Below are positions 31,380 to 53,486 of a stretch of 64,000 bases of DNA, piece by piece. The notes under the pieces were generated by a model. That model had not been told where the DNA came from and ran no database searches. It worked only from the letters and a program-made list of their open reading frames with translations. The DNA comes from an uncultured Planctomycetia bacterium (GTDB lineage Bacteria > Omnitrophota > Gorgyraeia > Tantalellales > Tantalellaceae): assembly GCA_964527555.1 (NCBI GenBank), contig CAZGOG010000006.1:276-64275 (forward strand). The letters run 5' to 3'. Positions within the stretch are counted from its first letter, which is position 1; each line of letters opens with the position of its first letter. The position numbers and the translations under genes were made by a program.

Positions 31380-31394
31380 TTTCCCCTCCTTATG

Positions 31395-32741: not shown

Positions 32742-32772
32742 ACTAGCCTCCTTTCCTGTTTAGTTAACACAA

Positions 32773-33621: not shown

Positions 33622-33749
33622 CTCAATCCCTCCTTTTTCAAGCGCTTAAGATAAATCCTCATGGATTAACATCCGTGGTGTTCCTTCGTTCTAAGTGCAA
33701 AATATCTTTCCCCGCAGATTCATGGTGAGCGAACGAAGTGAGTCGAACC

Positions 33750-33798
33750 ACAAAAAACGCCCTTTTTGAAGCTACCCATTGCTTCAAAATAGGGCGTC
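33750..33798 (-). terminator. Intrinsic terminator of the GAF-ANTAR gene
   Basis: A 17-bp stem (GACGCCCTATTTTGAAGC / GCTTCAAAAAGGGCGTT) is followed on the minus strand by UUUUUUGUGG. Confidence 0.6.
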
Positions 33799-33910
33799 TT
33801 AGCCTTAATATGCCATCTATGGAATTTAAACAAAAAACCTCGGGAGTTATTACCCCCGAGGCTGCTTTGCCGTTTGTAACTTCTTTGTTAGAGAAGCACG
33901 GTTAAATGTG

Positions 33911-34609: not shown

Positions 34610-34632
34610 GACTATATTTACCCCTTATTTTT

Positions 34633-36759
34633 TCATATCATGAACAGCATCTCCGCATAGGAAGGTAGCGGCCATATCTCATCCGGTACTAACCCTTCCA
34701 AGGCATCTACGGCCTGGCGGAGCTCGTTCATCGCAGATATTATCTTGCCGCTAGAGCCGTTTTCCAGACACTTTTCAAGTTTTTTTATGTTTTCAAGCAT
34801 CTTCTCTGTCTCTTCAGATACTTCTTTCAGAAGCTTCTTTGTAGCGGTTACTTTACCGCCGCATCCTGCGACATCTTCTACTGCCCTGGCCAAATTCGCC
34901 TGGTATTCAAGCGCTGCCGGAACAATCATCGTTTTTGCCATCGTCAAAGCAACCGATGCCTCTATGGCAGTCGTCCGTTCATACTGTTCTTTATAAATCT
35001 CATAGCGCGACATAAGCTCTGTTTTGGAGAGAACCTTGTGCCTCTCAAATAAAGAGACTACCTTTTCGTCTTTCATCACTTTAAGCGCTTCCGGGGTCGT
35101 TTTGAGATTAAGTAGACCCCGCTTTTCAGCCTCTTTGTGCCACTCTTTGGTATAGTTATCGCCGTTAAAAAGTATGCGTTTATGTTTTTTAACTATATCC
35201 TGCAATATCGACTGGAGAGCCTTGTTGAAATCCTTCTTAGTCTTGCCTGATTTCTCCAGTTTAGTGCATATCTCGTCAAGCGCGTCAGCGATAATAGTAT
35301 TCAAAACTATGTTAGCCCCGGCACAGCTCTGGTTGGACCCGACGGCACGGAACTCAAATTTATTCCCCGTAAAAGCGAAAGGCGACGTCCTGTTGCGGTC
35401 GGTCACATCACGCGGCAGAGTCGGCAGGGAAGTGACGCCTACTTGTATCGCATCTATTTTCTTAGAAGTTTTCGCACCGCCCTTCTCGATCTGTTCTATG
35501 ACATCCGTAAGCTGCTCTCCCAGAAAGATGGAAAGGATCGCAGGCGGCGCTTCGTTAGCGCCGAGCCTGTGGTCGTTTCCTGCGCTGGCTACGCTTGCTC
35601 TAAGTATGCCCGCATGAGTATCAATAGCCTTCATGAGCGCGCATATCATTGTGAGAAATTTAGCGTTCTCATGGGGGTTTTCACCCGGAGAAAGCCAGTT
35701 CTTGTCGTCAGGCCCGACAATCGACCAGTTGTTATGTTTACCGGAACCGTTAACGCCTGCAAAAGGTTTTTCATGAAGAAGACATACTAAGTCGTACTTT
35801 TCCGCGGCTTTTTTTAAAAGCTCCATCGTGATCATGTTATGATCGACGGAAAGGTTCTGCTCTTCAAAGACCGGCGCGATCTCAAACTGTGCGGGACAGA
35901 CTTCATTGTGCCGCGTCTTCGCCGGGATCCCCATCTTCCACATCTCGCGATCCAGCTCTTCCATGAAAGACATGACCCTGGTCTTTATGGCGCCGAAATA
36001 ATGGTCTTCCATCTGCTGGTGTTTTGCCGGAGCTCTGCCGAAAAGCGTCCTTCCGGTCTGAATAAGATCCAGTCGCGCTTCGTAATATCTCCTGTCTATA
36101 AGAAAATATTCCTGTTCGGGACCCAAAGTTGCGTAAGCGCGTTTATTTTTAACGTCAATACCGAACAATTTAGCCAAACGGCATACCTGTTTAGATAAAG
36201 CCGCCGCGCTCCTTAAAAGAGGCGTTTTCTTATCAAGCGCCTCACCGTGATAAGAGTAGAACGCCGTGGGTATACACAAGGTGGCTACATTCTCTCCCTC
36301 TTTTATGAAAGCCGGGGAAGTCGGGTCCCAGGCGGTATATCCGCGTGCCTCAAAAGTCGCCCTAAGCCCCCCCGAAGGAAAGCTGGATGCATCCGGTTCG
36401 CCCTTTATAAGCTCTTCTCCCGAAAACTTCATTATGACTCCGCCTTCCTGGTCAGGAGAGATGAAAGAGTCGTGTTTCTCCGCTGTTGCCCCCGTTAAAG
36501 GCTGGAACCAGTGAGTAAAATGTGTGGCGCCTTTCGACACCGCCCAGGTCTTCATAGCGTCGGCCACTTCATCGGCAATATTCGGGTCCAACGAACGGCC
36601 CTGCCTTATGGTTGAGACAAGCGACTTGTACGCAGTCTCCGAAAGGTAATTGCGCATATTCTTCAGGCTGAATACGTTTTCACCGTAAAAATCGGGCACC
36701 ATCGGTACATCCCTTTTCCTAGAGTTTTCTTTCATTATTGCCCCCCTTTTCTTAAACAT
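34633..36759 (-). CDS. glnN: Glutamine synthetase, type III
   Basis: At 708 aa the size and N-terminus fit GSIII. The GS catalytic region contains a conserved E/H/R ATP-binding stretch. Confidence 0.85.
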
Positions 36760-39384: not shown

Positions 39385-40377
39385 CTAGCAAATGCGCGGC
39401 AGCTGATCCGTCTCAAGCATAGGCAGTATCCGGTTTGCCCCGGCTGTTGTCTTTAAATAAACCTCTTTTTTGTGCCGGCTCGTCACTTCCCCTATGATCC
39501 TTGCTTCCGGGCCAAGCGCTTTTTTGACCTTCCCTGCATCCTTTTCACCGGCAAAACAGATAAATTTTCCTTCGTTTGCCACATATAAGGGGTCAAAACC
39601 CAGAACATCACACAGGCTTTTTACGTTTTTTTTGATCGGGATATCTTTTTCGTTTATCTCTATACCGAAATCGGATGCCCCTGCTATCTCATTAAGCGCT
39701 GTTGCCAGGCCTCCTCTAGTCGGATCACGCATAACGCTGATATTTTTTGAGGCTTTAAGGGCTTTTTCTGCCGCAAAGTTCAGGTTAGCGCAATCACTTT
39801 TTATTCCTGACTCAAACCCGAGATTCTCTCTTGCGTTAAGAATAGCCATCCCATGCTCGGCTATCCCCCCATTAATCAGTATAACATCCCCGGCTTTTGC
39901 TTTTGCGCCGATTCTGAATCCTTTACGCTCTATAACGCCTATACCGCTGGTATTGATAAAAATCTTGTCGCAGGCTCCTCTTTCAACTACTTTCAGGTCA
40001 CCTGTGACAACTTTAACGCCTGCCTTCCGGGAAGATTCTCTTACAGAAGAAGCGATCCTGTCTAAAACGGAGAACTCAAGTCCTTCTTCGATAATAAGCG
40101 CAAGTGAAATAAATAGCGGTTTTGCCCCTTTCATGGATATATCGTTCACCGTACCGCATATGGAAAGTTTGCCGATATCACCTCCCGGGAAAAAGAGCGG
40201 TTTTACCACGAAGGAATCAGTGCTGAACGCCAGATGCCCCGTACCCGTATAAAGCTCCGCGGCATCCGTCATCTCATTAAGAGCTTTATTCGAAAATTTA
40301 ATACGTAAAAGCTCAATAATTTCGTGCATAAGCCTTCCGCCGTTACCGTGTGCGAGTGTTATTTTTTTCTCTTTCAT
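39385..40377 (-). CDS. hypE: Hydrogenase maturation protein HypE
   Basis: The N-terminus reads ITLAHGNGG, the AIR-synthase-like fold is present, and the C-terminus ends PRIC (the Cys that is cyanated). Size is 330 aa. Confidence 0.9.
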   Translation of the reverse strand: MKEKKITLAHGNGGRLMHEIIELLRIKFSNKALNEMTDAAELYTGTGHLAFSTDSFVVKPLFFPGGDIGKLSICGTVNDISMKGAKPLFISLALIIEEGLEFSVLDRIASSVRESSRKAGVKVVTGDLKVVERGACDKIFINTSGIGVIERKGFRIGAKAKAGDVILINGGIAEHGMAILNARENLGFESGIKSDCANLNFAAEKALKASKNISVMRDPTRGGLATALNEIAGASDFGIEINEKDIPIKKNVKSLCDVLGFDPLYVANEGKFICFAGEKDAGKVKKALGPEARIIGEVTSRHKKEVYLKTTAGANRILPMLETDQLPRIC

Positions 40378-40396: not shown

Positions 40397-41413
40397 TTAA
40401 CCGCCGTATTTATAATATGCAGCGCAAGTGCCTTCTGAAGAGACCATACACGGGCCGACAGGGGTTTGCGGAGTACATTTCTTCCCGAAAAGAACGCAGT
40501 TCTTCGGTGATTTTATACCCTGGAGAACCGCCCCGCAAACGCATCCCTTCGGCACGGCCGGCTTAGGCACTTTTACCTTGAACTCTTTCTCGGCGTCAAA
40601 CCTCTCGTATTCTTTTTTCAGTTTTAAGCCGCTTTTTGCAATCTCCCCGATCCCGCGCCAGTGGCTGCTTCTGGCCTCAAACGCTTTTTCCAGCACTTTT
40701 TTAGCTTTTACATTTCCGCCTTTAGCGACTGCTCTTTTATATTCGATCTCCACTTTGCTTGAATGAGCCCGTACCTGATCAACAAGGCGTTTTATGCCGT
40801 TTATTATATCGCTGTCATCAAACCCAGTTATGACGCAGGGTTTGCCGTAACGCTTTGCCACGCATTCATAGGGAACGCTTCCGGTTATAACGCTGACGTG
40901 CCCCGGGCAAATAAAGCCGTCCACCTTGATTCGCTTAGAAGAAGCAAGCGCCTCAAGCGCCGGAAAAAGAACTTTGAAATTCGAAAGGATAAAAAAGTTC
41001 CGCACCTTGCGCTTTTCTGCTTCCAGAACTGTCGAAGCAACCGTAGGAGAGGTCGTTTCAAACCCCACTCCCATGAAAACTACTTTTTTCAAGGGATTAT
41101 CTTCGGCTATTTTTAAGGCATCAGTGCACGAGTATACTATACGCACGTCGGCTCCGTCTCTTTTAGCCCCTTCCAGACTTCCGCCGGTGCCTGGGACCCT
41201 CATCATATCACCAAATGTGGCCATAATGACATCTTTCGTACCGGCTATTTTTACGGCCCTGTCTATATCGCTTTGCGGGGTAACGCATACCGGGCAACCC
41301 GGGCCGGAGATTAGTTCTATCTCTCGAGGCAAGAGTTTTTTTATCCCGGATCTGGCGATTGCCATCGTATGCGTCCCGCACACTTCCATAAGTCTTATTT
41401 TTTTCTTTTTCAT
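40397..41413 (-). CDS. hypD: Hydrogenase maturation protein HypD
   Basis: Has the EVCGTHT-type N-terminal motif (MEVCGTHTMAI), GPGCPVCV and the FxxPGH motif, at 338 aa. Confidence 0.9.
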   Translation of the reverse strand: MKKKKIRLMEVCGTHTMAIARSGIKKLLPREIELISGPGCPVCVTPQSDIDRAVKIAGTKDVIMATFGDMMRVPGTGGSLEGAKRDGADVRIVYSCTDALKIAEDNPLKKVVFMGVGFETTSPTVASTVLEAEKRKVRNFFILSNFKVLFPALEALASSKRIKVDGFICPGHVSVITGSVPYECVAKRYGKPCVITGFDDSDIINGIKRLVDQVRAHSSKVEIEYKRAVAKGGNVKAKKVLEKAFEARSSHWRGIGEIAKSGLKLKKEYERFDAEKEFKVKVPKPAVPKGCVCGAVLQGIKSPKNCVLFGKKCTPQTPVGPCMVSSEGTCAAYYKYGG

Positions 41414-41414
41414 A

Positions 41415-41654
41415 CTATTTCCCGCCGGTATCTTCCCTTATTGTGCGTTTCAGTTCGTCAAGCGCCTTGAGCGTCTCTTGAGCTTCTTTTTTAGCGACTT
41501 TTCCTATAGCAAAACCGGCATGTACGAGGACATAGTCACCCTTTTTAACGCCGCTAAGAATCCCAAGCGATATTTCTTTTTTCGCGCCGCCAAAGTCTAC
41601 CACGGCGACATCTTTCTTTATATTTTTTACCTCAGCAGGAACCGCTAAACACAT
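41415..41654 (-). CDS. hypC: Hydrogenase maturation protein HypC
   Basis: Starts MCLAVP with Cys2, at 79 aa. Its stop overlaps the hypD start. Confidence 0.85.
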   Translation of the reverse strand: MCLAVPAEVKNIKKDVAVVDFGGAKKEISLGILSGVKKGDYVLVHAGFAIGKVAKKEAQETLKALDELKRTIREDTGGK

Positions 41655-41661: not shown

Positions 41662-42732
41662 TTAGTTTAAATCCGCATTTAACGCCATGTAATACTGTCC
41701 AAGCGCTACATTGAGGTCATTTACAGGCACCTTATTATTTGTAAAGACTTTAAAGCGCAGTGCAACCAGCTCCTTGATGCATCTTTCCCTTAAGAATCCG
41801 TTCTGGAAGACTCCGCCGCTTAAAACTGTATTTTTAATACCGCTCTCTTTAGAGATTTTCTTAACAGTTTCAATGATTATCTTTATCATAGAATTATGAA
41901 ATTTAGTGGCGATAGTTTCTTTGCTTTTTTCTTTTTTCTTGTCCTCTAGCAGAGCGAGAAATATCTTTTTAGGATCTACAACTATTAGTCCCTTTTCATC
42001 TGCTAGATCAAAAGGGTAACTGCCCTTAACTTTCTTGCTGCATAAAGACTCAAGTTTTATGGGGCCTTCCGCTTCGTACGAGGCGTATTCGCATATTCCG
42101 AGAAGTGCCGCAGCAGCATCAAAAAGTCTTCCGGCACTTGACGATAAAGGCGAATTTAACCCCTTCTCCAGCATCTTTAAAACTAGAAACTTTTCTTCCT
42201 TAGGCGCCTCTTTTATTGCAGAAAGCCCGCTTTTTCCCAGTATGCTCAAGACCATGCGCCATGGCTCCAGAACCGCTTTATCACCGCCGGGAAGCATCTG
42301 ATACTTTAGATGCGCTACTCTTTTAAAATGTTTACCCCTAACCGTAAAAAACTCTCCGCCCCATATATTCCCGTCCGTCCCGTATCCGGTCCCGTCAAAG
42401 GAAACACCGATAACCGGCTCTTTCAGCCCGCGTTCATATATCACGCTTGCTATATGCGCGTGATGATGCTGGAAAGCCAGAAGAGTACTCTTCGGAAGTT
42501 TTAAAGATATTTCTTTCGCCAGAGACGATGAAAAATAACCCGGATGCATGTCGCAGGCTATTAACTTCGGCATGACTTTTTTAAGGGCTTTTTGCACTTC
42601 TTTCCTGACTAACGCATAATTTTCTGCATTGCTTAAATCCTGTATATCCGGTCCGAACAAGAGACTTCTTCCCCCGGAGAGAAGAAACCTGTTTTTCGTG
42701 TCAGATCCGAGGGCAAGAACTGTTTTTTTCAT
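41662..42732 (-). CDS. HypF C-terminal (Kae1/carbamoyltransferase-like) domain only
   Basis: ACDMHPGYFSS, HHHAHIASV and LSGGVFQN match the HypF C-terminal half. At 356 aa it has no acylphosphatase, zinc-finger or YrdC-like domains. Confidence 0.7.
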   Translation of the reverse strand: MKKTVLALGSDTKNRFLLSGGRSLLFGPDIQDLSNAENYALVRKEVQKALKKVMPKLIACDMHPGYFSSSLAKEISLKLPKSTLLAFQHHHAHIASVIYERGLKEPVIGVSFDGTGYGTDGNIWGGEFFTVRGKHFKRVAHLKYQMLPGGDKAVLEPWRMVLSILGKSGLSAIKEAPKEEKFLVLKMLEKGLNSPLSSSAGRLFDAAAALLGICEYASYEAEGPIKLESLCSKKVKGSYPFDLADEKGLIVVDPKKIFLALLEDKKKEKSKETIATKFHNSMIKIIIETVKKISKESGIKNTVLSGGVFQNGFLRERCIKELVALRFKVFTNNKVPVNDLNVALGQYYMALNADLN

Positions 42733-42743
42733 ATTGTTTTCTC

Positions 42744-42986
42744 TTACTCCACATCAAACGAAAGAACCTGGACGATCGTACCCGGAAACATCGTTATCTC
42801 AAGCGAAGCATCCTCCAGCATGGTGCCCTTCGCTAAAACTTTAAAGGTTTCCCGGAATGAATCTTCCCTGACGCAGGTAAGGTTCCCCACCTTGAGTTTA
42901 ACTTTCGTCACCGTGCTTGCCCCTTCTTCTCTGGCATGTTTTTCTATTCCTTCGATTACCGGCTTTATTAAATGCGTTTCATGCAT
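42744..42986 (-). CDS. HypA-like nickel-binding domain protein lacking the zinc-finger module
   Basis: Starts MHETHL, carrying the MHE Ni-binding N-terminus. At 80 aa it has no CxxC pairs. It sits between the protease and the HypF-like gene. Confidence 0.5.
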   Translation of the reverse strand: MHETHLIKPVIEGIEKHAREEGASTVTKVKLKVGNLTCVREDSFRETFKVLAKGTMLEDASLEITMFPGTIVQVLSFDVE

Positions 42987-43464
42987 TATACGCCTCCTCT
43001 ATGAGTTGAGTCATCTCATCAAGCGTCTTTTTCACGTTAGGCGAGACTTCTTCGCCAAAATCGACATTCTCCGGCTGAACGGCCAGCATATAAATATCGG
43101 CGGCCAGCTCCTTCTCAAGGTATTCAATAAACATGACCGGTGAAAGGTCATGCGTGGTAAACCCGGATCTGACTATGTCTTTCTTCTTCAAAATATCGTA
43201 TTCGCCGCTAGCCATGCCCAGCTGTGCCGCATCAGCAATAAGAACCGTTCGTGGAGCCCTCTTGACGATCTTACCCAGATAGTTTTCTGGAGCCGTCCCG
43301 GCATCGATGCACACAGCGCCGATCCTATCCTTTATCCTTTCGATTAAAAGAGGTCCGAAAGCATCGTCGCCCCTTAGGACGTTACCCACCCCTACTATCA
43401 AGCACTCCTTTTTAAACACAGCCTGAAGAGTACGGTATATTTTTTGTTTTTTGTTTTTCATCAC
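42979..43464 (-). CDS. [NiFe]-hydrogenase maturation endopeptidase (HycI/HybD family)
   Basis: Has the LIVGVGNVLRGDDAFG motif at 161 aa. The large subunit it would process carries a C-terminal extension after DPCYCCTER. Confidence 0.85.
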   Translation of the reverse strand: MMKNKKQKIYRTLQAVFKKECLIVGVGNVLRGDDAFGPLLIERIKDRIGAVCIDAGTAPENYLGKIVKRAPRTVLIADAAQLGMASGEYDILKKKDIVRSGFTTHDLSPVMFIEYLEKELAADIYMLAVQPENVDFGEEVSPNVKKTLDEMTQLIEEAYNA

Positions 43465-43500: not shown

Positions 43501-44169
43501 TTAGCCTTCTTCGTTCTCTTTCGTAGTAAGAGTGGTTTCTCTCCTACAGCGCGCGCAAAGGATCTTCACCCTGTCGGAACGGCCGTAATCCTTCATCGCG
43601 GAGATAATATTATTATCTACAATACCAAGACTTTTAAGGCGGGCTAGGTATAAGGTGGGACTTGAATAGGTCAACTCCCCTATTTTCTCAGAGATCCATT
43701 TCAGGTGATCCTTGCAGGCGATCACATCGCCGCACACCTCACAGAGCTGAAGCTCCTTCTCAATCGTCTCCTGAGCTTCACCCCTGTCAAAGAAGGCAAG
43801 ATCCCAGTCATTGGAGAGTTTAATACCTTCATTATCAGCGATACAGGCGGCTTCACACTGGCCGCAGAATATGCAGGTATCTGTATAATGGATGAGCGTC
43901 CTTTTCGGCTTTTCAGAATCAGTCTCATCCTTGTAATCAAGTGCCTCCACGGGACAGACCTGCACGCATGCAAGGCATCCCACGCACTTTTCGTCATTAT
44001 ATTTGGGTTGTCCCCGAAAGTTCTTATGCGCGACGTGCGCTACTTTAGGGAATTTAGACGTATACGGCCCTTTTATAAGCGCTTTTATCGCTTCTATAAG
44101 CTCCCTTATTTTGGGTTTCGGTATCCTCATCCTATATCTCACCCTCTTTATCTTCAGCATACCTGTCAA
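43501..44169 (-). CDS. NuoI/MbhN-like 2x[4Fe-4S] subunit of the membrane-bound hydrogenase (the start may be the internal MRIP at about 44130)
   Basis: Has two CxxCxxCxxxCP motifs (CVGCLACVQVCP, CIFCGQCEAAC) plus an extra C-terminal Cys-containing extension. Confidence 0.7.
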   Translation of the reverse strand: MTGMLKIKRVRYRMRIPKPKIRELIEAIKALIKGPYTSKFPKVAHVAHKNFRGQPKYNDEKCVGCLACVQVCPVEALDYKDETDSEKPKRTLIHYTDTCIFCGQCEAACIADNEGIKLSNDWDLAFFDRGEAQETIEKELQLCEVCGDVIACKDHLKWISEKIGELTYSSPTLYLARLKSLGIVDNNIISAMKDYGRSDRVKILCARCRRETTLTTKENEEG

Positions 44170-44467
44170 TAACGCTTTTTTCCCAGAGCTTGACTCCCGC
44201 TCTATGCGCGCCTCTTGCCACTGCGTGCGCTGCTACCGGTGCCGTCAAAAGTATGAACACTATGCAAAGAAGAGATTTAAGACCGGCTGCCGTGAACCCC
44301 ACTACCAGGAACGTCCCGAAGAGGATACTGCAAGTACCCAGCGTAACGCTTTTTGTCGCAGCCTGGAGACGGTTATATACGTCCGGCAGCCTCACCAGCC
44401 CCAGACAGCCGAAAAGGTCAAACGCAAGACCAACAGCAATAAAGACTAACCCGATAATATTACTCAT
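44132..44467 (-). CDS. mrpG: Mrp antiporter subunit G (MnhG/MbhC-like)
   Basis: A small 3-TM protein whose N-terminus IIGLVFIAVGLAFDLFGCLGLVRLPDVYNRL is typical of MnhG. Confidence 0.8.
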   Translation of the reverse strand: MSNIIGLVFIAVGLAFDLFGCLGLVRLPDVYNRLQAATKSVTLGTCSILFGTFLVVGFTAAGLKSLLCIVFILLTAPVAAHAVARGAHRAGVKLWEKSVIDRYAEDKEGEI

Positions 44468-44837
44468 CGAAACCTTTTCCTTCTAAATATTTTGAAAGTG
44501 CAAGCGTCCCTATAAAACTTTGAAGCGCCCAGGCTATACCAATGTCTATATACCATGACCTGCCGGTCGAAATCGTCAAAACGGAACAAAAACCGATTAT
44601 CATGATACCGAAAATATCTATCGCAACGATCCTATCGGCGCCTGTAGGCCCCCTGAATATGCGGTAAAGGCAAAGCGCACAGGCAAGAACCAGTATATAC
44701 ATGGCCCTGCCTAAAAACCCGACAAAGGGAAGATCAGGATAAAAAAGAAACGGAAACGGCCTTATTAGGATAAGGGTGATTATGGTAATGAGTGAAAGAG
44801 CCCCTAAGATCCATCTTAATATCTTCATGTTTTTCAA
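44460..44837 (-). CDS. mrpF: Mrp antiporter subunit F (MnhF/MbhB-like)
   Basis: 125 aa with 3 TM helices and the GPTGADRIVAIDI motif of MrpF. Confidence 0.8.
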   Translation of the reverse strand: MKNMKILRWILGALSLITIITLILIRPFPFLFYPDLPFVGFLGRAMYILVLACALCLYRIFRGPTGADRIVAIDIFGIMIIGFCSVLTISTGRSWYIDIGIAWALQSFIGTLALSKYLEGKGFDE

Positions 44838-44844
44838 TTATCCC

Positions 44845-45342
44845 TTATTCAAAGATTTTAGCTAAAATATCCTCAAACCTCTCCACAATCACTTTTGTTG
44901 CGGAAGAGACGTCTTTCTCCGTTACATTGATCCAGTGTATATAGAGAACGCCGCCCTCCCTGTCGATATCAACGCTCATGGTCCCCGGTGTAAGGGTTAT
45001 GGAATTAGCCAGAAAGGTGAGCGCCGTATCCGACTTAAGTTTAGTCTTAACCTTGACGATTCCCGGGTTTATCGGAAGCTTTGGATGCGTTACGCGATAC
45101 GCAACATCGATATTCGCTTTCAGACACTCCCATAAAAACCTCGGCACATAATAAGCTATAAAATACCAGTAACGGTGCGGGTGTTTAAGTATCTGGGGTC
45201 TGGTTATAAAAAGATCGCCCGTCGCAGCGGCGACAAAAGCTACTATAAAAACCCCGACTAAAAGATGCTGCCAGTCCGGTGGCCACGTCAGCATGCACCA
45301 TATAACAAAACCACAAACAAATAAGACTAATTTCTGTTTCAT
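44845..45342 (-). CDS. mrpE: Mrp antiporter subunit E (MnhE/MbhA-like)
   Basis: An N-terminal 2-TM region is followed by a soluble domain at 165 aa. It sits in the MrpD-E-F-G order. Confidence 0.75.
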   Translation of the reverse strand: MKQKLVLFVCGFVIWCMLTWPPDWQHLLVGVFIVAFVAAATGDLFITRPQILKHPHRYWYFIAYYVPRFLWECLKANIDVAYRVTHPKLPINPGIVKVKTKLKSDTALTFLANSITLTPGTMSVDIDREGGVLYIHWINVTEKDVSSATKVIVERFEDILAKIFE

Positions 45343-46848
45343 TTATCCGATCCCTTTGAAAACAATAGCGGCATATTTAGTTCCCTCTAAAAGGGCGTCT
45401 GCCGCCTGTGAAAGAAAATCCGTCTTTACCGCGCCCACCAGGAGAAGCCCTCCCAGAACACATATAAGCGCTAAGGCGCTCATGGCGAGTTTCATGAAGA
45501 CGGGCACCTCTTTCACCTGGTCCCATTTCTTTTTTAAGCGGTCGAAAAAGGCATATTTCATGACTTTCATGAAAGATGCAAGAGTCAATACGCTCGCTAT
45601 GACCGCCCATAAAGCGTAGCCGTAGCGCCCTGCCTGGACTGCCGCGATGATTATAATAAGCTTGCTCCAGAAGCCGTTAAAAGGCGGCACCCCCGCAATA
45701 GACATCGAAGCGATAAGACTCGTCGCTCCGGTAACGGGCATTTTCTCCGCCAGGCCGCCCATTTCCTTGAGATCACGCGTTCCCGTTGAATATTCGACAG
45801 CGCCGGAATTCAAGAAAAGCAGCGACTTAAACACGGAATGGTTAAAAAGATGAAATAACCCTCCCAGAATACCCAGCGGCGTAGCCAGGCCTATACCGAG
45901 CACTACATAACCTATCTGACTTATCGAATGATACGCAAGAAGCCTTTTAAAATCCCACTGCCCTATAGCCAGGAAAACCCCTATTACCATAGATAGCGTC
46001 CCGAGAACTAAAAGTATGGAGGAGATCTCGGCGCTCATACCGATGACATTGTACAAGATCCTGCAAAGCGCATATATACCGAGAGATTTTATGAGCACTC
46101 CCGAAAGCATCGCCGAAATAGGCGCCGGTGCGGAAGGATGGGCATCCGGGAGCCATGCATGGAACGGGACAAGCGCCGCTTTAAGCCCGAACCCCATGAC
46201 GAAGAGTACCGTTACCATCACCGTTATGTCGCCGCCGCCTTTTGCCGCAAGTACCTGCGCCATATCCGCCATATTAAGAGTGGAAGTATAACTGTACAGG
46301 AAAACAATACCCAGAAGAACGAAAAGCGAAGCCACGGTACTCATGATAGCGTACTTAAAAGCGGCTTCGAGCTCATGCTTCTCCGTCCCGAAAGCGACCA
46401 GCGCGTAACTTGCTACAGACGCTATCTCAAGAAAAACAAACAGGTTGAACATGTCGCCCGTTATAATGACCCCGTTCATCCCGGCAAGCATCAGGAGAAA
46501 CAATGAGTAAAACTTCCACTTGGAGGTATACTTTTCCATATAATTTATCGAAAAAACAGCTATTATAAAAGCGACCAGGTTCACCGTGACCAGCATGAAC
46601 GATGTCAGCCCGTCCAGCACCATGGCGATACCAATGGGAGGTTTCCAGGCACCGACGCTATATACCAAAGTACCGTTCTGGTTTACGACCCAGACCGATA
46701 CAAGCGAAAGCGCCATGAGAGCTAAAGTAAACACCCCTCCCGTCAGGTCGGGCGCCCACTTCACCTTTTTGCCTATAAGCGGCAGGAGGAACGCCCCGGC
46801 CAGAGGCAGTGCGACAAAAAGCGGTATTATATTAGATGCCGGCATCAT
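45343..46848 (-). CDS. mrpD: Mrp antiporter subunit D (NuoN/MbhH-like proton-pumping subunit)
   Basis: A 501-aa polytopic protein of the NuoL/M/N family (WLPDAHPSAPAPISAMLSG). Confidence 0.85.
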   Translation of the reverse strand: MMPASNIIPLFVALPLAGAFLLPLIGKKVKWAPDLTGGVFTLALMALSLVSVWVVNQNGTLVYSVGAWKPPIGIAMVLDGLTSFMLVTVNLVAFIIAVFSINYMEKYTSKWKFYSLFLLMLAGMNGVIITGDMFNLFVFLEIASVASYALVAFGTEKHELEAAFKYAIMSTVASLFVLLGIVFLYSYTSTLNMADMAQVLAAKGGGDITVMVTVLFVMGFGLKAALVPFHAWLPDAHPSAPAPISAMLSGVLIKSLGIYALCRILYNVIGMSAEISSILLVLGTLSMVIGVFLAIGQWDFKRLLAYHSISQIGYVVLGIGLATPLGILGGLFHLFNHSVFKSLLFLNSGAVEYSTGTRDLKEMGGLAEKMPVTGATSLIASMSIAGVPPFNGFWSKLIIIIAAVQAGRYGYALWAVIASVLTLASFMKVMKYAFFDRLKKKWDQVKEVPVFMKLAMSALALICVLGGLLLVGAVKTDFLSQAADALLEGTKYAAIVFKGIG

Positions 46849-47183
46849 CCCTTTAACTCCCTGATCTTTGTGATATCAAAAGTACCGTATTTTTCATAGA
46901 TCCTCATCGCGATACCCACAAGTAACGCGGTAGTCGCAAGTCCTATGACAATAGAGGTAAGCACGAGCGCCTGCGGCAGCGGGTCCACCATGTTCTTTAT
47001 TTCTTCGCCGCTTGAGAAGATAGGCGCGCGTCCATTCACTCTATAGCCCGCGAGTATGAAAAAGAGGTTAACCGCGTATTCCAGTATGATCACACCGATT
47101 ATCATCTTTATGACGTTGCGTTTTCTCACTATACAGTAAATACCGATAACGAAAAGTACCAGACACAGAAAATAAATGCTCAT
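46845..47183 (-). CDS. mrpC: Mrp antiporter subunit C (NuoK/MbhG-like)
   Basis: 112 aa with 3 TM helices and the conserved Glu-containing motif ILEYAVNLFFILAG. Confidence 0.85.
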   Translation of the reverse strand: MSIYFLCLVLFVIGIYCIVRKRNVIKMIIGVIILEYAVNLFFILAGYRVNGRAPIFSSGEEIKNMVDPLPQALVLTSIVIGLATTALLVGIAMRIYEKYGTFDITKIRELKG

Positions 47184-47632
47184 TTTTTCTTCCCTACATC
47201 AAGTTTTAATAGTATCAGTGCCACAAATATCGCGAAAATCCCGGCTCCCACTTTGAAACTTATGGCAATATTGCAAAGCGGGATAATACCCGCGCTGAAA
47301 AGCCTGAAAGGCTCACCTTTCGGTATAAAATTCAAAAAGAAATATCCTCCCGTAAAACCTAAAAGCGCTATAGAGAGAAATAGTATCGCGCCGGTACTTT
47401 CCCAGATGGAGGCTCGTGCCTCGGAAAGCTTCTTAAAGGCGACTTCTTTACCATATGCCAGTATTAGGTGTATAAAAGACAGCGCAATGATAACACCGCC
47501 GGCAAAACCGCCTCCCGGTGAAAGATGCCCGTGAGTGACGATATAAACCCCGTAAAGAAAGATGATCCCTACCGTTAGACGCGTGATCGTCTTGACTATA
47601 AGCGACATGCCTTTTTCATGTTCCCTACTCAT
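47180..47632 (-). CDS. mrpB: Mrp antiporter subunit B-like (MnhB domain, MbhF-like)
   Basis: The motif THGHLSPGGGFAGG is the MnhB signature. Confidence 0.8.
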   Translation of the reverse strand: MSREHEKGMSLIVKTITRLTVGIIFLYGVYIVTHGHLSPGGGFAGGVIIALSFIHLILAYGKEVAFKKLSEARASIWESTGAILFLSIALLGFTGGYFFLNFIPKGEPFRLFSAGIIPLCNIAISFKVGAGIFAIFVALILLKLDVGKKK

Positions 47633-48173
47633 CGCTTGCTTTTACCTCTTCTCCTGCTTTTTTTCTGCCAATGCGTCTTACAATCGCCAGAACCCCTATA
47701 ACAGCGGTAAACAGAATCGTCGCCTCACCCAGCGTATCGTAAGCCCTGAAGTCCAATATGACGGAAGAGACAAGGTTGACAGCTCCCGTTTTTGGAAGAC
47801 CTTCCGCCAGATATGTCTTAGCTACCCGCATCGCCGGATATCCGAACTCGGGCAGATCCTTAAGGCATTTCATGGCTACCGCCATAAACAAAACTATGAA
47901 ACATGCTGTAATAAGAGTGTTTAAAAACCACCTGCCGGTCGTTGAAAACGGAAGATCCTTCTTAAGCGTCGCTCTTATAAGGATTATGAGCGCCAGTATC
48001 TCTACCACAAGCTGCGTAATAGCCACGTCCGGCGCTTTGAGTATCAAGAACACTATGGAAAGCGCCAAACCGACCGCACCTACCGCTATAACAGCCGAAA
48101 GCAGGTCTTTTAGCTCGATCGCGACGATCGCGCCTATAATCATCAAAACAAGTAAAACGTAAAGCTCTACCAT
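47625..48173 (-). CDS. MrpA C-terminal-region-like membrane subunit (MbhD/E-like)
   Basis: 182 aa and hydrophobic. It sits between the NuoL-like MrpA core and MrpB, as in Mbh-type operons. Confidence 0.6.
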   Translation of the reverse strand: MVELYVLLVLMIIGAIVAIELKDLLSAVIAVGAVGLALSIVFLILKAPDVAITQLVVEILALIILIRATLKKDLPFSTTGRWFLNTLITACFIVLFMAVAMKCLKDLPEFGYPAMRVAKTYLAEGLPKTGAVNLVSSVILDFRAYDTLGEATILFTAVIGVLAIVRRIGRKKAGEEVKASDE

Positions 48174-48180
48174 ACTCTTC

Positions 48181-49821
48181 CTACTTCAAAAGAATATAAA
48201 AAAGGACACCCATCCCCAATAAACACCAGGCCAGATACGTAAGAAGCACGCCGTTATGGATATATCGCAGCACTTTATTGAATCCAAGCGTAATTTTAAC
48301 ACCGACCTCATATATATCAAATACTTTTCTCCCGGCAAGCCGGTAGATAAACTGCAAAACGCCTATGTCTCTGATGGTGTCGTAAAACTCGGTCCCGGAA
48401 GGTCGCATCTCCGGATGCTTTTCCAGAATCTCCCCGCCTACAAAAGGTTCAGCGGTCCTCGTCTTAAAAGCAGTGCCTGCCAGATAGATCAAAAATCCTA
48501 TTATAACGCCTACGATTATAAGAGCGGTAGCCAGTCCCGAACTCCATATACCGGTAAAGTTCGCTGCGCCCCCCAGGCTCGGGAATATGAACATCTTAAG
48601 CGGCACCTGGTAAGCAAAAATACCGAAAATAACACACAGTGCCGCTAATATCACCGAGGGGACCCACATGGTAGAACCTGCTTCGCCTTTAAGCTTTTTC
48701 CTGCCGGAGGCGGGCCTTCCCAGAAAAACGGCATGCACTAGTTTCATGAAACTTGCCAGTGTAAGGGCGCTGCCGAACATCGCCGCGACGATCCATACTA
48801 CCCAGAACTTATCCCCTGCTTTAGCCGAGTCTATTATCCCCTGGTAAATCATCCATTTGGAAGCAAATCCGTTAAAAGGCGGTACGCCTGAAATGGAAAA
48901 AGCGGCTATTAAAAACGCTACAAAAGTTATGGGCATAACCCTCGCAAAACCCCCGAGTTTTCCCAGGTCAACGGTACCCGCTTTCTTCTCGACCGATCCG
49001 CCCGAGAAAAACAGGCAGGATTTATAAATCGCATTATTGAGCATGTGAAACACACCGCCGGCAATACCGATGGGGTTACCCGTACCTATACCCAGAACCA
49101 TGTACCCGACCTGGCTTACGGCGTGATACCCCAAGAGCCTTTTCATGTCGTGCTGGATAAGCGCCATCATTACCGCGGCAACTATCGTGACGCTTCCCAT
49201 TACCATCAAAAAGGTGTTCATGCCCTTATCCATCTGGAAGACATCAAGAGAGATTCTCGCAAGAAAATATATGCCTAACAGTTTATCCAAAGAAGCCGGC
49301 AGAAACGCAGTCACAGAAGTCGGGGCGTCTTCCGCGACATCAGGTACCCATGTATGGAAAGGCATGGCGCCTGCTTTTGCGAACGCGCCCGAAGCCAGAC
49401 ATAGATACGCCAGGACTGCAGCTTTAGTATTAAGAGCAATACTCATCTTGTCTATCTCGAAAGTCCCCGTAAGATGCCAGATGATACCAAGCCCCAGGAG
49501 CATAAAAGCATCCGTACCGCCGATTATGATAAAAGTTTTTTTAGCCGTGTAGGCGGCACTATCTTTCCGGCTAAAACCGATCAAAAGATAAAGTAAAAGC
49601 GCCAAAAATCCCCAGAAAACTATAAAAAGCACCAGATTGTTGGAAAAGACCGCTCCTAAAGAAGCTAAAAACGTAAGGATGATATAGCTGTAGTAGCGCA
49701 GTAAACCTTTCCTTCCGCGCATAAAACCGATGGAGTAGAGAATCGTCAGAGCGGAGAACACGCTGACGAATATCGCTACAAAAATCGACAAATTATCTAA
49801 TCTAAAGAGTCCATCCGTCAC
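48181..49821 (-). CDS. mrpA: MrpA/NuoL-like antiporter core subunit
   Basis: A 546-aa polytopic protein of the NuoL family (WVPDVAEDAPTSVTAFL, HAVSQVGYM). Confidence 0.85.
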   Translation of the reverse strand: MTDGLFRLDNLSIFVAIFVSVFSALTILYSIGFMRGRKGLLRYYSYIILTFLASLGAVFSNNLVLFIVFWGFLALLLYLLIGFSRKDSAAYTAKKTFIIIGGTDAFMLLGLGIIWHLTGTFEIDKMSIALNTKAAVLAYLCLASGAFAKAGAMPFHTWVPDVAEDAPTSVTAFLPASLDKLLGIYFLARISLDVFQMDKGMNTFLMVMGSVTIVAAVMMALIQHDMKRLLGYHAVSQVGYMVLGIGTGNPIGIAGGVFHMLNNAIYKSCLFFSGGSVEKKAGTVDLGKLGGFARVMPITFVAFLIAAFSISGVPPFNGFASKWMIYQGIIDSAKAGDKFWVVWIVAAMFGSALTLASFMKLVHAVFLGRPASGRKKLKGEAGSTMWVPSVILAALCVIFGIFAYQVPLKMFIFPSLGGAANFTGIWSSGLATALIIVGVIIGFLIYLAGTAFKTRTAEPFVGGEILEKHPEMRPSGTEFYDTIRDIGVLQFIYRLAGRKVFDIYEVGVKITLGFNKVLRYIHNGVLLTYLAWCLLGMGVLFYILLK

Positions 49822-50430
49822 TTAGCTGCTCTCCTTTGATACCCTTGCGATGTTCGTGCAATGACGGGCTATGTTACCCGTGAAATCCAACATATCAAAA
49901 TACATGTTCGACGCTCGCGCCTGGCATATACCTTTAGTAAGGCGTTCAAGATGCGCACTTCTTGCCTTTTCAACCAGTTTCTTGATCACGTCTCCATTGG
50001 CCAGGATCTCGTCTAAAAGTCCCGGATTCCCGGTATTTAGAAATTTCACTAAGAGGTCCACTGACTTTTTCATCGTATTAAACACTTCTTTATATTGGGA
50101 TGAACCTTCTTCGCTGAACTGGAGCCTGTCTGAAATTTTGATCTCAATACGCTCAACCAGAGAACGAAACTCATCCCCCATACGTTCCAGGTTCTGGGCG
50201 ATCTGCCCCCAAACGACAAGTTTTTTCTTGGCGGCCTCATCGAGTTTTTTGGAAAGCGCCACGATATCGGCAATGATCTCCTCTTCGATAGCGTCCAGTT
50301 CTCGTTCTTTGCCGAGAACACCGTCAAGTATATGTATATCGTTTTTATCAAGACCGCTGTATGTGATATCTACCATCTCTTTAACGATCGCGGCCATCTC
50401 CCGGGCTGATTTTTTTATTTTGTCGTTCAT
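49822..50430 (-). CDS. PhoU-like/DUF47-type helical protein embedded in the hydrogenase operon
   Basis: It is all-helical, and MLDFTGNIARHCTNIARV plus LERMGDEFRSLVERIE resemble PhoU repeat motifs (D..GD...nIaE). It is translationally coupled on both sides. Confidence 0.45.
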   Translation of the reverse strand: MNDKIKKSAREMAAIVKEMVDITYSGLDKNDIHILDGVLGKERELDAIEEEIIADIVALSKKLDEAAKKKLVVWGQIAQNLERMGDEFRSLVERIEIKISDRLQFSEEGSSQYKEVFNTMKKSVDLLVKFLNTGNPGLLDEILANGDVIKKLVEKARSAHLERLTKGICQARASNMYFDMLDFTGNIARHCTNIARVSKESS

Positions 50431-51605
50431 CTTTTCCCCCGTCTGATCCTTTCGGTCTTCTCCTGTGAAAGCCTGATAAGCTCTTCACCGTTATAAAGCT
50501 TCTTTCCTTTAATATCCCGCACGGCCATCCTTTCCGTGCAACAATAACACGGGTCTATAGCTGCCAGGATAATCGTAGTATCGGCAATAGTCTCGCCTAT
50601 CACAGTAGACTTATAAGTCGGCAGATTCATAAAGGTCGGGGCCCTTACCTTGTGCCTCTCAGGGCTGTTAGTACCGTCGCTCCTCACATAATGAAACGTC
50701 TCGCCCCTGGGGGCCTCGATGTGGCCTATACCTTCTCCCGGGGGGATGCTTTTGATATTGGCGTCTATTTCCCCCGATGGAAGGTTTTTAAGGCAGTACT
50801 TCATTATCTTATGGGACTCGAACATCTCAAGCACTCTTACAACAACCTTATCAAAAACATCCCCGGTTTCGGTGACTATCATATCCCAGTCTAATCTGTC
50901 ATAAGCTCCATAGGGAGAATCTTTTCGAACGTCCCTGGCGACTCCGGAAGCACGTGAAGTGGGACCCAAAGCAGAATAGTCTATGGCTTCTTCCTTTGTA
51001 AGAATACCTACGCCTTTCGTCCGCGCGTGCAGTACCGGGTCATCCATAACGGCTTTCCTTAGCATCTCAAGCGTAGGGACGATAGAATCTATTTTCTTTA
51101 TAGACGCCTCAATATCCTCAGGGGCAAAATCCCTCCTTACCCCGCCCGGTTTAAACATCGCATAGTTATTTCTGTTGCCGGAAAGTATCTCCATGACGTC
51201 CAGGATCTCTTCCCGGAGTTTCCAGGCCCACATGTAAACGGTATTATAACCCAAGAAATGCCCCGCAAGACCAAGCCATAAAAGATGAGAGTGCAGCCTT
51301 TCCCCTTCAGCGATCACGGTCCTTATGAACTTGGCTCTTTCGGGCACTTCCATCGGGATGATATCCTCAACCGCCCTCGTATAAGCATAGGGATGGCTTG
51401 TCGAGCATATGCCGCAGATCCTTTCAATAACAAAAGTGGACTGATCAAACGTCTTCATCTCGGACAGTTTCTCTATACCCCTATGGTTATACCCGACCTG
51501 GACGTCGACATCTACTACTTTCTCACCTTCTACCGTAAGGGTGAAAAACTCGGGTTCCTCCTGCAGCGGGTGATACGGTCCTATTGGTACAATTGTTTTC
51601 GCCAT
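50427..51605 (-). CDS. Group 4 [NiFe]-hydrogenase large subunit (EchE/MbhL/HycE-like). Start placed at MAKTIVPIGPY.
   Basis: ERICGICSTSH is the N-terminal RxCGxCxxxH Ni-Fe ligand motif and DPCYCCTER the C-terminal DPCxxCxxR motif. A roughly 33-aa C-terminal extension is left for the endopeptidase. Confidence 0.9.
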   Translation of the reverse strand: MAKTIVPIGPYHPLQEEPEFFTLTVEGEKVVDVDVQVGYNHRGIEKLSEMKTFDQSTFVIERICGICSTSHPYAYTRAVEDIIPMEVPERAKFIRTVIAEGERLHSHLLWLGLAGHFLGYNTVYMWAWKLREEILDVMEILSGNRNNYAMFKPGGVRRDFAPEDIEASIKKIDSIVPTLEMLRKAVMDDPVLHARTKGVGILTKEEAIDYSALGPTSRASGVARDVRKDSPYGAYDRLDWDMIVTETGDVFDKVVVRVLEMFESHKIMKYCLKNLPSGEIDANIKSIPPGEGIGHIEAPRGETFHYVRSDGTNSPERHKVRAPTFMNLPTYKSTVIGETIADTTIILAAIDPCYCCTERMAVRDIKGKKLYNGEELIRLSQEKTERIRRGKR

Positions 51606-51609
51606 TTTT

Positions 51610-52104
51610 TTATTTTGGTTTTTTGTTTTTTTCGATGCCACGATCCCTGACAGCTTGCGGATCCCATTCTTCATAATCTGCCCTGAGCGGGTAAACCCCT
51701 TCGGGCCAGTCCTCCGGAAGGAGAAGCCTCCTGAGATCGGGGTGCCCCTTAAAATTAACGCCTAAAAGTTCATGTATCTCTCTTTCTATCCAGTCCGCGG
51801 CCTTGAAATGCGGCGCTAAAGAATCTATCTCAAGCTTGTCTTTTGCCAGCTTCACCCGTAGTGAAATCAATAGATTTATGTCCTCGACAGTGAAATGATA
51901 CAGGATCTCTATATAGTCCCGTGCGTCCCTTCCCGTAGCTATGTTAAAACGCGCTTTCTGGTCCTTGAAAATATAAGTGGCCACCTTGACCAAGGATTTC
52001 GGCTTGATCTCGATGTACACTCTTTTCCGGGTCTTATCGAAAATATCGATAATATCTGCCTTGAACTTCTTCGTGAGATCTTTTAATATTTCTTCTCGAT
52101 TCAT
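51610..52104 (-). CDS. NuoC/EchD-like hydrogenase subunit
   Basis: A 164-aa NuoC (30 kDa subunit)-like sequence (ERE..E.LG..F.GHPD.RRLL). Confidence 0.8.
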   Translation of the reverse strand: MNREEILKDLTKKFKADIIDIFDKTRKRVYIEIKPKSLVKVATYIFKDQKARFNIATGRDARDYIEILYHFTVEDINLLISLRVKLAKDKLEIDSLAPHFKAADWIEREIHELLGVNFKGHPDLRRLLLPEDWPEGVYPLRADYEEWDPQAVRDRGIEKNKKPK

Positions 52105-52542
52105 CTATTTAGTTTCCCGGCTTTTTGCCTTGACCTTTTCTATTAGTTTCACCACACCCGCTATTATAGCTTCCGGTTTCGGCGGGCAACCCGGAATGTA
52201 AGCATCAACGGGGATTATTTTATCAAGCGGCACGGGACAGTTGTAGCTGTGTATGAACATGCCGCGCGACAGTGAACACTCACCTATGGCGACTACGAGA
52301 CACGGTTTCGGGGCCTGCTCATAAAGCCTCTTAAGTCTTTTCGCCGATTTCCTGTTACAGGACCCCGTAATAAGAAGAACGTCGGCGTGTTTAATGCTCG
52401 GGGCCAGAAGCATCCCGAACCTCTCTATGTCAAACCTGGGCGTAAGACAATCGAGCACTTCGATATCGCAGTTATTACAGCTTCCCGTGGAAAGGTGGAA
52501 CACCCACGGAGATTTTAGCAACGCTTTTAGTTTCATGCTCAT
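52105..52542 (-). CDS. Group 4 [NiFe]-hydrogenase small subunit (NuoB/EchC/MbhJ-like)
   Basis: Has four Cys for the proximal [4Fe-4S] (CNNCDIEVLDC ... GCPPKPE) at 145 aa. Confidence 0.9.
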   Translation of the reverse strand: MSMKLKALLKSPWVFHLSTGSCNNCDIEVLDCLTPRFDIERFGMLLAPSIKHADVLLITGSCNRKSAKRLKRLYEQAPKPCLVVAIGECSLSRGMFIHSYNCPVPLDKIIPVDAYIPGCPPKPEAIIAGVVKLIEKVKAKSRETK

Positions 52543-52544
52543 GT

Positions 52545-53486
52545 TTATCTTCCTATTAGTGCCAATACCACCGCGACTATCGCAATCACCGTCATCGGTC
52601 CCCAGAAAAACTTAACGGCCTGATCTATCCTTACCCTGGGATTCGTGTTTCTTATGACCGTTATAAGCGCCACAAGTCCTATATATTTGAGGATGCCGTA
52701 TAGAAAGTGCACTCCATCAAGTCTTAACCCGCCCATGTAAAGTATCATCAAAAAGAAAGGCAGCGTGAAAAGAAGCATGTTCTTCATGAGGCGGAAAACT
52801 GCCAAAGGCGCGCCGGAATATTCTATTAAAACTCCTCCTCCAAGCTCGGTCTCGGCTTCGGGTATATCAAACGGCACAAAAGCAAGTTTTGCCTGCACGC
52901 TCATGATCGCAACGACGAGCGCCAAAGTGCCGGATAAACTTCCCGCCACCACACCGTTTTCTGCCTGAGAAGTAAGTATGTCCCCCAGTCTGATCGCATA
53001 ATCGGATTTAATAACGGGAACCAGTACCGCAAGTACAAATGGCAGCTCATAAGCAAGTATCATCTTCATCTCACGGGAAGCGCCTATACTCGCCAGCGGG
53101 TTTGCCGAGGCAAAACCACCTATTATGATACTTATCGAGGGGATGGTAAGCAGGTATATCGCAACGATTATATCCCCCATAAAACCTTTACCCACCCATA
53201 TATCATTGACCCACAAGAGGGCTGAGACCACCATTACGCTCGATATGCCCAGAACAGGCGCCAGTAAAAACGTCTGTTTTGAGGCCCCCGCGGGGACTAA
53301 AGTCTCTTTACCCAACAGCTTGATTATATCGATAAGCGGCTGAAGAAGAGGCGGCCCCACGCGATACTGCACGCGTGCAGTGACTTTCCTGTCAATCCAG
53401 CTTGCCAGAAGCCCTATTACGGCTGTCAGTAAAAATCCAAAAAATAGCAGATAAAACACGTTTCTCATGCTTTTTCCCTGTCCCAA
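52545..53486 (-). CDS. NuoH/EchB/MbhM-like membrane subunit
   Basis: A 313-aa polytopic protein of the NuoH family (RVQYRVGPPLLQPL, ETELGGGVLIEYSG). Confidence 0.85.
   Translation of the reverse strand: MGQGKSMRNVFYLLFFGFLLTAVIGLLASWIDRKVTARVQYRVGPPLLQPLIDIIKLLGKETLVPAGASKQTFLLAPVLGISSVMVVSALLWVNDIWVGKGFMGDIIVAIYLLTIPSISIIIGGFASANPLASIGASREMKMILAYELPFVLAVLVPVIKSDYAIRLGDILTSQAENGVVAGSLSGTLALVVAIMSVQAKLAFVPFDIPEAETELGGGVLIEYSGAPLAVFRLMKNMLLFTLPFFLMILYMGGLRLDGVHFLYGILKYIGLVALITVIRNTNPRVRIDQAVKFFWGPMTVIAIVAVVLALIGR

Follow-up and report, generated by a model that had tools for sequence, protein, structure and literature searches.

How much of the canonical maturation apparatus does a [NiFe] hydrogenase need? 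All six Hyp proteins (HypA to HypF) are stated to be necessary for anaerobic synthesis of its cofactor (PMC12134894). The question is raised by a locus in a 64-kb stretch of DNA (hereafter the window) that is labelled as an uncultured Planctomycetia bacterium and placed in the Omnitrophota by GTDB (contig CAZGOG010000006.1, assembly GCA_964527555.1). Reading of its open reading frames (ORFs) and Pfam matches shows a long operon on the minus strand whose 3′ end carries the hyp genes, and two of them are unusually short: HypF is represented by its Kae1-like carbamoyltransferase domain and HypA by its nickel-binding domain. We lean, with some reserve, towards regarding these genes as a functional maturation cassette, typical of the lineage, through which an Omnitrophota bacterium matures the Mrp-linked group-4 [NiFe] hydrogenase encoded next to it. 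This lineage probably needs fewer proteins to make its hydrogenase cofactor than the textbook pathway employs.

The Short HypF and HypA Proteins

The HypF gene (41662..42732, minus strand, as are all genes of the window described here) encodes a protein of 356 amino acids (aa), whose Pfam matches comprise HypF_C (residues 2-100, E 3e-21) and HypF_C_2 (residues 109-346, E 4e-80). The families Acylphosphatase (PF00708), zf-HYPF (PF07503) and Sua5_yciO_yrdC (PF01300) gave no match on this ORF. The protein is collinear over its whole length with residues 399-745 of the Caldanaerobacter HypF of known structure (3VTH; E 1e-72), and in the alignment with Cupriavidus necator HypF2 it spans approximately residues 427-807, beginning past the YrdC-like domain. 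An earlier sequence-only reading of this DNA had described the protein as a C-terminal half lacking the acylphosphatase, zinc-finger and YrdC domains, and Pfam and both alignments agree with that description. Its AlphaFold2 (AF2) model has a predicted local distance difference test (pLDDT) score of 89 and a TM-score (TM) of 0.92 against the Kae1-like domain of 3VTH. Similarity to TsaD is weak, and against TIGR00143 the protein scores 261.5 bits, below the cut-off of 466.1, covering profile positions 390-740 of 741.

What is left of HypF appears catalytically intact. The HHHAH and SGGVFQN motifs are found, the metal- and nucleotide-site residues H89, H90, H93, D113, D339 and G306-G307 are conserved, and the HxxxH, Asp, Asp metal site of a Kae1-like domain is present, with H89, H93, D113 and D339 invariant. 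Across 85 short and full-length HypFs, 15 positions are at least 95% conserved (H89, H90, H93, D113, D120, R138, S198, R202, D205, E228, H279, G306, G307, N311 and D339), and a column-by-column comparison shows that the short HypFs keep every strongly conserved position of the catalytic core. Three other positions are changed. His29, present in 86% of full-length HypFs, is gone from both classes of Omnitrophota short HypF defined below (class I, to which the window belongs, and class II) and from the truncated C. necator HypF1; Thr38 is replaced by Asn in the same three groups, and Gly341 by Asn in the two Omnitrophota classes only. These changes may reflect relaxed or altered constraint at the former interdomain face; the loss of His29, in particular, is consistent with relaxed constraint at the YrdC interface.

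The HypA gene (42744..42986), identified by Pfam, alignment and an AF2 model, encodes 80 aa (HypA-80) that match positions 1-70 of the 112 of Pfam HypA (E 7e-17, 62 bits, cut-off 28.9). Against TIGR00100 it scores 61.3 bits, below the cut-off of 88.1, over profile positions 1-68 of 116. Its N-terminus, MHETH, contains the MHE nickel site of the alpha/beta nickel domain, and the single Cys among its 80 residues leaves no CxxC...CxxC zinc site. Alignment with the two canonical HypAs of C. necator shows that about 31 internal residues, including both CxxC pairs, are missing from HypA-80, and that the final beta-strand is retained (TIVQVLSFDVE, the canonical counterpart being TELRVMDMLVE). The AF2 model (pLDDT 91.6) matches Thermococcus kodakarensis HypA (3A43_B) in Foldseek with TM 0.90 and a root-mean-square deviation of 1.8 Å across the gap. 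Since the gap is internal and the last strand is kept, HypA-80 is not C-terminally truncated; sequence and model alike describe it as a complete nickel-binding domain from which the zinc ribbon has been excised. The sequence-only reading, which had noted the MHE start and the absent CxxC motifs, thus holds in both respects, and what it regarded as a reduced protein is better viewed as the product of an internal excision.

The 120 best clusters of HypA homologues are 80-90 aa long (about 100 of them exactly 80 aa), share 64-100% identity and have M1, H2, E3, H5, H17 and E21 invariant. Comparison with the canonical proteins of known structure (3A43, 5AUN and 5YXY from T. kodakarensis; 2KDX and 6G81 from Helicobacter pylori) shows that the MHE start, the alpha/beta nickel domain and the returning last strand are shared, and that the canonical proteins differ by their zinc domain (CxxC...CxxC, about 31 residues or more). 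Zinc-free forms recur well beyond this lineage. An exhaustive profile search gave 2110 representatives at E <=1e-3, and approximately one third of the best 150 are 78-88 aa long and spread over many different 50%-identity clusters. None of 36 short HypAs taken from the profile matches has paired CxxC motifs; most start with MHE, two having degenerate N-termini. In one locus (L092, 8001-13545; related loci are cited by such numbers where needed) a Hox-type soluble hydrogenase is followed by a HypA-80 (P0286), a HypB of the CobW family, a full-length HypF of 765 aa and HypCDE, and in another (L093, 6001-6909) an operon resembling that of the Cupriavidus soluble hydrogenase carries a HypA-80 (P0384) and then a HypB with an MCTTCGC start, the contig ending inside hypB. 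These zinc-free HypAs of other lineages match that of the window in length, excision boundaries and MHE start; they differ in adjoining HypB and Hox-type soluble hydrogenases and in lacking MHETH and His17. The zinc domain has therefore been lost repeatedly, its loss can accompany a normal HypB and HypF, and it is not specific to the reduced set. The trait specific to class I is instead the MHETH/His17 signature, His5 and His17 being invariant in class I HypA and absent from canonical and other zinc-free HypAs. The zinc-free 80-aa HypA seems little described in the literature that we searched.

Distribution Among the Omnitrophota

The 120 best relatives of the short HypF are 338-407 aa long, match the Kae1 Pfam families only and share 54-99% identity; the 28 with a named organism all come from Candidatus Omnitrophota/Omnitrophica. 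Each of the short forms, HypF as well as HypA, is common to more than 100 protein clusters, at 54-85% identity. The gene order hycI-hypA80-hypF350-hypC-hypD-hypE behind an Mrp-linked group-4 [NiFe] hydrogenase was found in at least eight diverged loci of Omnitrophota type, which constitute class I: the window, L001 (CP070655.1, 1.14 Mb), L002 (CP070780.1, 1.43 Mb), L005, L006, L089, L090 and L091. Within approximately 10 kb of the cluster, the class I relatives contain neither HypB nor the N-terminal half (N-half) of HypF. In L089, a NikR-type regulator (13804-14220; RHH_1 and NikR_C) stands directly after hypE and is followed by an OprB-family porin; a NikR beside hypE fits nickel-responsive control.

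A scan of GTDB representative genomes provided at least 80 HypF loci, mostly encoding full-length HypFs of other phyla, which were used as contrast. Among the matches listed, short-type loci comprised all six of those labelled Omnitrophota and two labelled 'uncultured Planctomycetia'; three loci were uninformative as the contig ended, and in all the remaining ones, from other phyla, the N-half was fused directly upstream. Counting the window, L001 and L002, 11 loci lack an upstream N-half, and they fall into class I and a second group, class II (L013, L034, L039, L043, L046 and L055), whose HypF is approximately 40% identical to that of class I. In class II the short HypF is followed by hypCDE and, in four of the six loci, by a normal, zinc-containing HypA of 116 aa; a neighbourhood search found no HypB, and the same type of hydrogenase follows where the contig extends. 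A bootstrapped neighbour-joining tree of the Kae1 domain supports class I at 100% and class II at 96%, their union, at 36%, being unresolved.

The class II cassette (e.g., L043:8835-14987) is bracketed by an ORF of about 346 aa upstream and one of about 250 aa after hypA or hypE, the latter being followed in L043 by a NIL-4Fe4S protein. Both flanking ORFs were considered as substitutes for the missing HypF and HypB functions and set aside. They are absent from class I, and neither has a Pfam match; one has the features of a His/Cys-containing barrel-like protein and the other those of an ApbE/UPF0280-like protein, and with NIL-ferredoxin and biotin genes as neighbours they look like genes of methionine or cofactor metabolism.

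Search for HypB and the Missing HypF Half

The sequence-only reading had also noticed that no HypB GTPase lies in or near the operon. Pfam scans of most ORFs of the window, tblastn searches of it with C. necator HypB1, HypB2 and the HypF2 N-half, and profile hidden Markov models (HMMs) built from 38 HypBs and 61 HypF N-halves and applied to all its stop-to-stop segments of at least 40 aa found neither HypB nor a HypF N-half, so that this observation stands for the whole 64 kb. Across the window and the short-type loci searched with it, the best E-value of the HMMs and tblastn was about 0.4, apart from a match in L011 that was rejected, as it belongs to a full-length HypF interrupted by the contig end. 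Inspection of approximately 10 kb on each side of the cluster in 13 related short-HypF loci gave no HypB or N-half either, and no evidence for a dedicated YrdC partner was seen in the window or the neighbourhoods inspected.

A further search with an N-half profile, built from six sequences of the Planctomycetes-Verrucomicrobia-Chlamydiae (PVC) group and its neighbours, matched mostly partial proteins, and both N-half-only proteins inspected on long contigs adjoin a Kae1 half. In these two ENA assemblies (L095:8001-10284 and L096:7822-13791) HypF lies in adjacent pieces, and in L096, which is visibly fragmented, HypD is in three. The split HypFs of L095 and L096 look like frameshift errors, not biology, and call for caution when split HypFs are counted in metagenomes.

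The Client Hydrogenase and Its Operon

The large subunit of the hydrogenase (50427..51674; NuoD-like, group 4; Pfam Complex1_49kDa and NiFeSe_Hases) contains the motifs RICGICSTSH and DPCYCCTER, with all four Cys ligands present, and a C-terminal extension of 33 aa after the latter. Both ligand motifs and the extension show that it is a true nickel-iron enzyme, dependent on insertion of a cofactor and on processing by a protease. A HycI-type maturation endopeptidase (42979..43464; Pfam HycI) is encoded just before hypA and scores 105 bits against the NCBIfam hydrogenase maturation protease superfamily (cut-off 47); the dedicated protease and the cleavable extension together support a real client enzyme. 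The RxCGxC and DPCxxC ligands, combined with NuoB-, NuoC- and NuoH-like and Mrp-type subunits, identify a group 4 membrane-bound [NiFe] hydrogenase. Downstream of the two short genes follow HypC (41415..41654; start MCLAVP; Pfam HupF_HypC, E 3e-26), HypD (40397..41413; Pfam HypD, E 2.5e-148) and HypE (39385..40377; Pfam AIRS and AIRS_C), which ends in ...LPRIC with the canonical C-terminal PRIC acceptor cysteine; all three proteins are canonical.

The operon opens with a Rex-like redox regulator (55917-56546), followed by an AsrA-like Fer4_22 protein, an AsrB-like FAD/NAD-binding protein and a Fer4_11 ferredoxin (53465-55910), a module whose sequence suggests that electrons enter this group-4 hydrogenase from NAD(P)H. 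In L034, L039, L043 and L055, all of class II, NuoH/B/C/D are likewise preceded by the Rex/AsrA/AsrB/ferredoxin module. Then come the NuoH-, NuoB- (small subunit) and NuoC-like subunits (51610..53486; Pfam Complex1_30kDa, Oxidored_q6 and NADHdh), the large subunit, a PhoU-domain protein of 202 aa (49822-50430; Pfam PhoU, E 2e-17, and far under the NCBIfam PhoU cut-off), seven Mrp/Mbh-type membrane subunits (44132..49821; identified by Pfam on identical genes in L085 and homologues in L001) and a 2x[4Fe-4S] ferredoxin-like subunit (43501..44169; Pfam Fer4 families). The PhoU-domain protein, whose gene here separates that of the large subunit from that of the first Mrp-type subunit, is also present in L001, L085 and L087 and absent from L089-L091.

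After hypE, a 733-aa protein with a hydrophobic N-terminus and a DUF5060 domain (37055-39256) keeps its synteny in L085, L086, L088 and L089; its L089 counterpart has domains of glycoside hydrolase family 5 (GH5)/cellulase, and it is probably an unrelated secreted glycoside hydrolase. The hyp genes also adjoin a nitrogen-assimilation block (19800-36759) with glutamate dehydrogenase, PII, a GAF-ANTAR regulator and type III glutamine synthetase, in which ORFs of 1509 aa and 448 aa are possibly glutamate synthase and an ammonium transporter. An ORF of 282 aa (32773-33621) without a Pfam or NCBIfam match occupies the same position in L085, L086 and L088. Further along lies an oxygen-defence cluster (14950-18964) typical of a strict anaerobe, consisting of a thioredoxin-reductase-like flavoprotein, two rubrerythrins, a desulfoferrodoxin and a flavodiiron-type protein (ODP and flavodoxin domains).

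Comparison With Known Systems

The closest parallel to the short HypF is HypF1 of C. necator H16, a protein of 394 aa encoded in the hyp1 operon of the membrane-bound hydrogenase (MBH) on pHG1. It has been called 'unusually truncated', is described as retaining one of three domains, and reportedly shows no activity under anaerobic conditions or in hypF mutants of E. coli (PMC5350229, PMC9100943). Lenz and co-workers proposed that truncated HypF1 'likely requires carbamoyl adenylate' (PMC9100943). Like the HypF of the window, HypF1 is a Kae1-only protein with the same domain boundary, is encoded just upstream of hypC-hypD-hypE, has lost His29 and carries T38N. Unlike it, HypF1 occurs alongside canonical HypA and HypB and two full-length HypFs (HypF2 and HypF3), whereas the short HypF of the window is the sole HypF seen beside the sole hydrogenase cluster and is conserved in a phylum-level lineage. 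HypF1 has the HypF2 of C. necator itself as its nearest relative, and none of 100 bootstraps places it with the Omnitrophota forms; its truncation is therefore an independent event.

Synthesis of the tRNA modification N6-threonylcarbamoyladenosine (t6A) relies on YrdC-type (TsaC/Sua5) and Kae1-type (TsaD/Kae1/Qri7) enzymes that act as separate proteins. The t6A pathway thus resembles the situation considered here in that a Kae1-type transferase is fed an acyl-adenylate by a separate YrdC-type enzyme; it differs in its substrate, threonylcarbamoyl-AMP, and in its acceptor, A37 of tRNA.

Group 4g Mrp-linked [NiFe] hydrogenases have been described in metagenome-assembled genomes (MAGs) of Omnitrophota and Cloacimonadota, with one hydrogenase in each Omnitrophota MAG from Ace Lake (PMC8542988). 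These enzymes are of the same phylum and Mrp-linked kind as that of the window; we assign the latter to group 4, 4g being the class used in that paper. The word 'maturation' does not occur in its main text, nor do hypA, hypB or hypF in its supplements, and our literature search found no paper that combines Omnitrophota with HypF. Partial precedents exist in C. necator HypF1, in zinc-free HypAs elsewhere and in clusters without HypB; the lineage-wide combination is new.

A Proposed Reduced Maturation Route and Its Alternatives

In canonical HypF, the acylphosphatase domain hydrolyses carbamoyl phosphate to carbamate, carbamoyl-AMP is formed by the YrdC-like domain, and the Kae1-like domain moves the carbamoyl group to the HypE cysteine (PMC6022934, PMC12134894). 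In the pathway that we propose for the cassette, the short HypF would perform the last step only, the transfer of the carbamoyl group to the HypE cysteine, and dehydration by HypE would produce the cyanide ligand as usual. A HypF limited to this step must receive its activated carbamoyl donor from outside the protein, and the donor would have to reach the solvent-exposed Kae1 site. It could be free carbamoyl-adenylate supplied in trans by an unlinked YrdC-type enzyme, as TsaC does for TsaD, or else carbamoyl phosphate itself, used directly by the exposed Kae1 site. The 80-aa HypA would hand over nickel unaided, by way of its N-terminal MHE. The invariant His5 of MHETH may add a nickel ligand, in which case no HypB nucleoside triphosphatase (NTPase) would be needed. 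Binding of HypB reportedly brings a distant His into the nickel site of T. kodakarensis HypA, as Watanabe and colleagues are said to have described in 2015, and His5 of class I could conceivably do in cis what that distant His does there.

Two of the alternatives treat the short genes as something other than the working copies. The sequence-only reading had considered a frameshift that hides the missing domains, and an error of this kind has some plausibility in that frameshift-split hyp genes are seen in some long-read assemblies, such as the HypD of L096. At the present locus, however, only 11 nt separate the hypA stop from the hypF ATG, which is preceded by GGAG, resembling a ribosome-binding site, and hypA and hycI overlap at start and stop, respectively; as the hycI/hypA/hypF junctions leave no spare space, no frameshift could recover approximately 400 residues. 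Identical HypA-80 is moreover encoded on 22 independently assembled contigs from three sources (JGI, ENA and Logan), gene order being unchanged as far as each contig reaches, and the same architecture recurs at 52-66% identity in many assemblies, so that loss of the domains through a frameshift or deletion in sequencing or assembly can for practical purposes be dismissed. The same reading had also envisaged degenerate paralogues of a complete canonical hypA, hypB and hypF set located elsewhere. The short copies would then be dispensable. C. necator offers a model for this, with its truncated HypF1, apparently inactive in E. coli, beside full-length HypF2 and HypF3. But it is the short genes that share an operon with hypCDE, hycI and the hydrogenase. 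Strong purifying selection acts on them throughout their many clusters, with two deep clades for HypF, and they occur on contigs of 1.1-1.4 Mb. The invariant active-site residues and the fixed synteny with hypCDE, hycI and an intact large subunit make degeneracy very unlikely. A second complete hyp set is likewise unlikely in view of the small size of the two large contigs, of the short genes being strictly tied to the one hydrogenase cluster observed, and of the single hydrogenase reported per Ace Lake Omnitrophota MAG. On this evidence redundant or decaying paralogues are quite improbable.

A third explanation keeps the short genes functional and assigns the HypF activities missing here, hydrolysis of carbamoyl phosphate and adenylation, as well as HypB, to unlinked genes, with carbamoyl-AMP provided in trans. 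The separate YrdC- and Kae1-type proteins of t6A synthesis show how such a division can work, the carbamoyl adenylate requirement proposed for HypF1 (PMC9100943) fits it, and inspection in the relatives spanned only about 10 kb per side, leaving room for distant partners. Nevertheless, the window and 13 other short-HypF neighbourhoods yielded no partner gene, the two N-half-only proteins inspected on long contigs adjoin Kae1 halves and are not free-standing, and His29 is lost in all three short lineages, which would not be expected if a partner docked in the same manner. We consider a pathway split in this way unlikely, if by no means negligible. Returning to the working, reduced cassette, several observations weigh against it. 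The labile intermediates of canonical HypF are channelled internally (PMC6022934), which argues against free carbamoyl-adenylate; the sole Kae1-only HypF studied coexists with HypF2 and HypF3 and is inactive in E. coli (PMC5350229, PMC9100943); and two partial full-length HypFs are labelled 'Candidatus Omnitrophica' (P0398 and P0443), so the phylum is not uniformly short. In addition, the short HypF, the zinc-free HypA and the missing HypB are separable events, for zinc-free HypA occurs beside HypB (in L092 also with full-length HypF) and the class II short HypF together with normal HypA. Of the reduced maturation route offered by the sequence-only reading, a reduced set shared across the lineage is accordingly supported by conserved clusters and synteny, and the notion of one coordinated, stripped-down package is weakened. 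The balance still tips towards these small genomes lacking a canonical acylphosphatase/zinc-finger/YrdC module dedicated to HypF. A stronger form of the proposal, to which we give a tentative place and somewhat less than an even chance, is that Omnitrophota with the cassette have no such module and no HypB anywhere in the genome. A lone Kae1-like HypF would then suffice in vivo to load HypE with the cyanide precursor, perhaps by drawing the carbamoyl group from carbamoyl phosphate itself, and the zinc-free, 80-aa MHETH HypA would insert nickel without an NTPase.

Implications

Many relatives of the short HypF are labelled 'hypothetical protein', in keeping with the scores of short HypF and HypA below the family cut-offs, and metabolic reconstructions may wrongly score such genomes as unable to mature a hydrogenase. 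The reduced set might also explain the puzzling HypF1 of C. necator, and it could be of use in designing minimal maturation cassettes for heterologous hydrogenase production. A lineage that combines an intact, protease-dependent [NiFe] hydrogenase with a reduced Hyp set is a natural test of which parts of the maturation machinery are essential. If the stronger form of the proposal is true, the Omnitrophota would possess a natural, four-and-a-half-protein minimal pathway of [NiFe] maturation, in which three of the four domains of HypF are dispensable.

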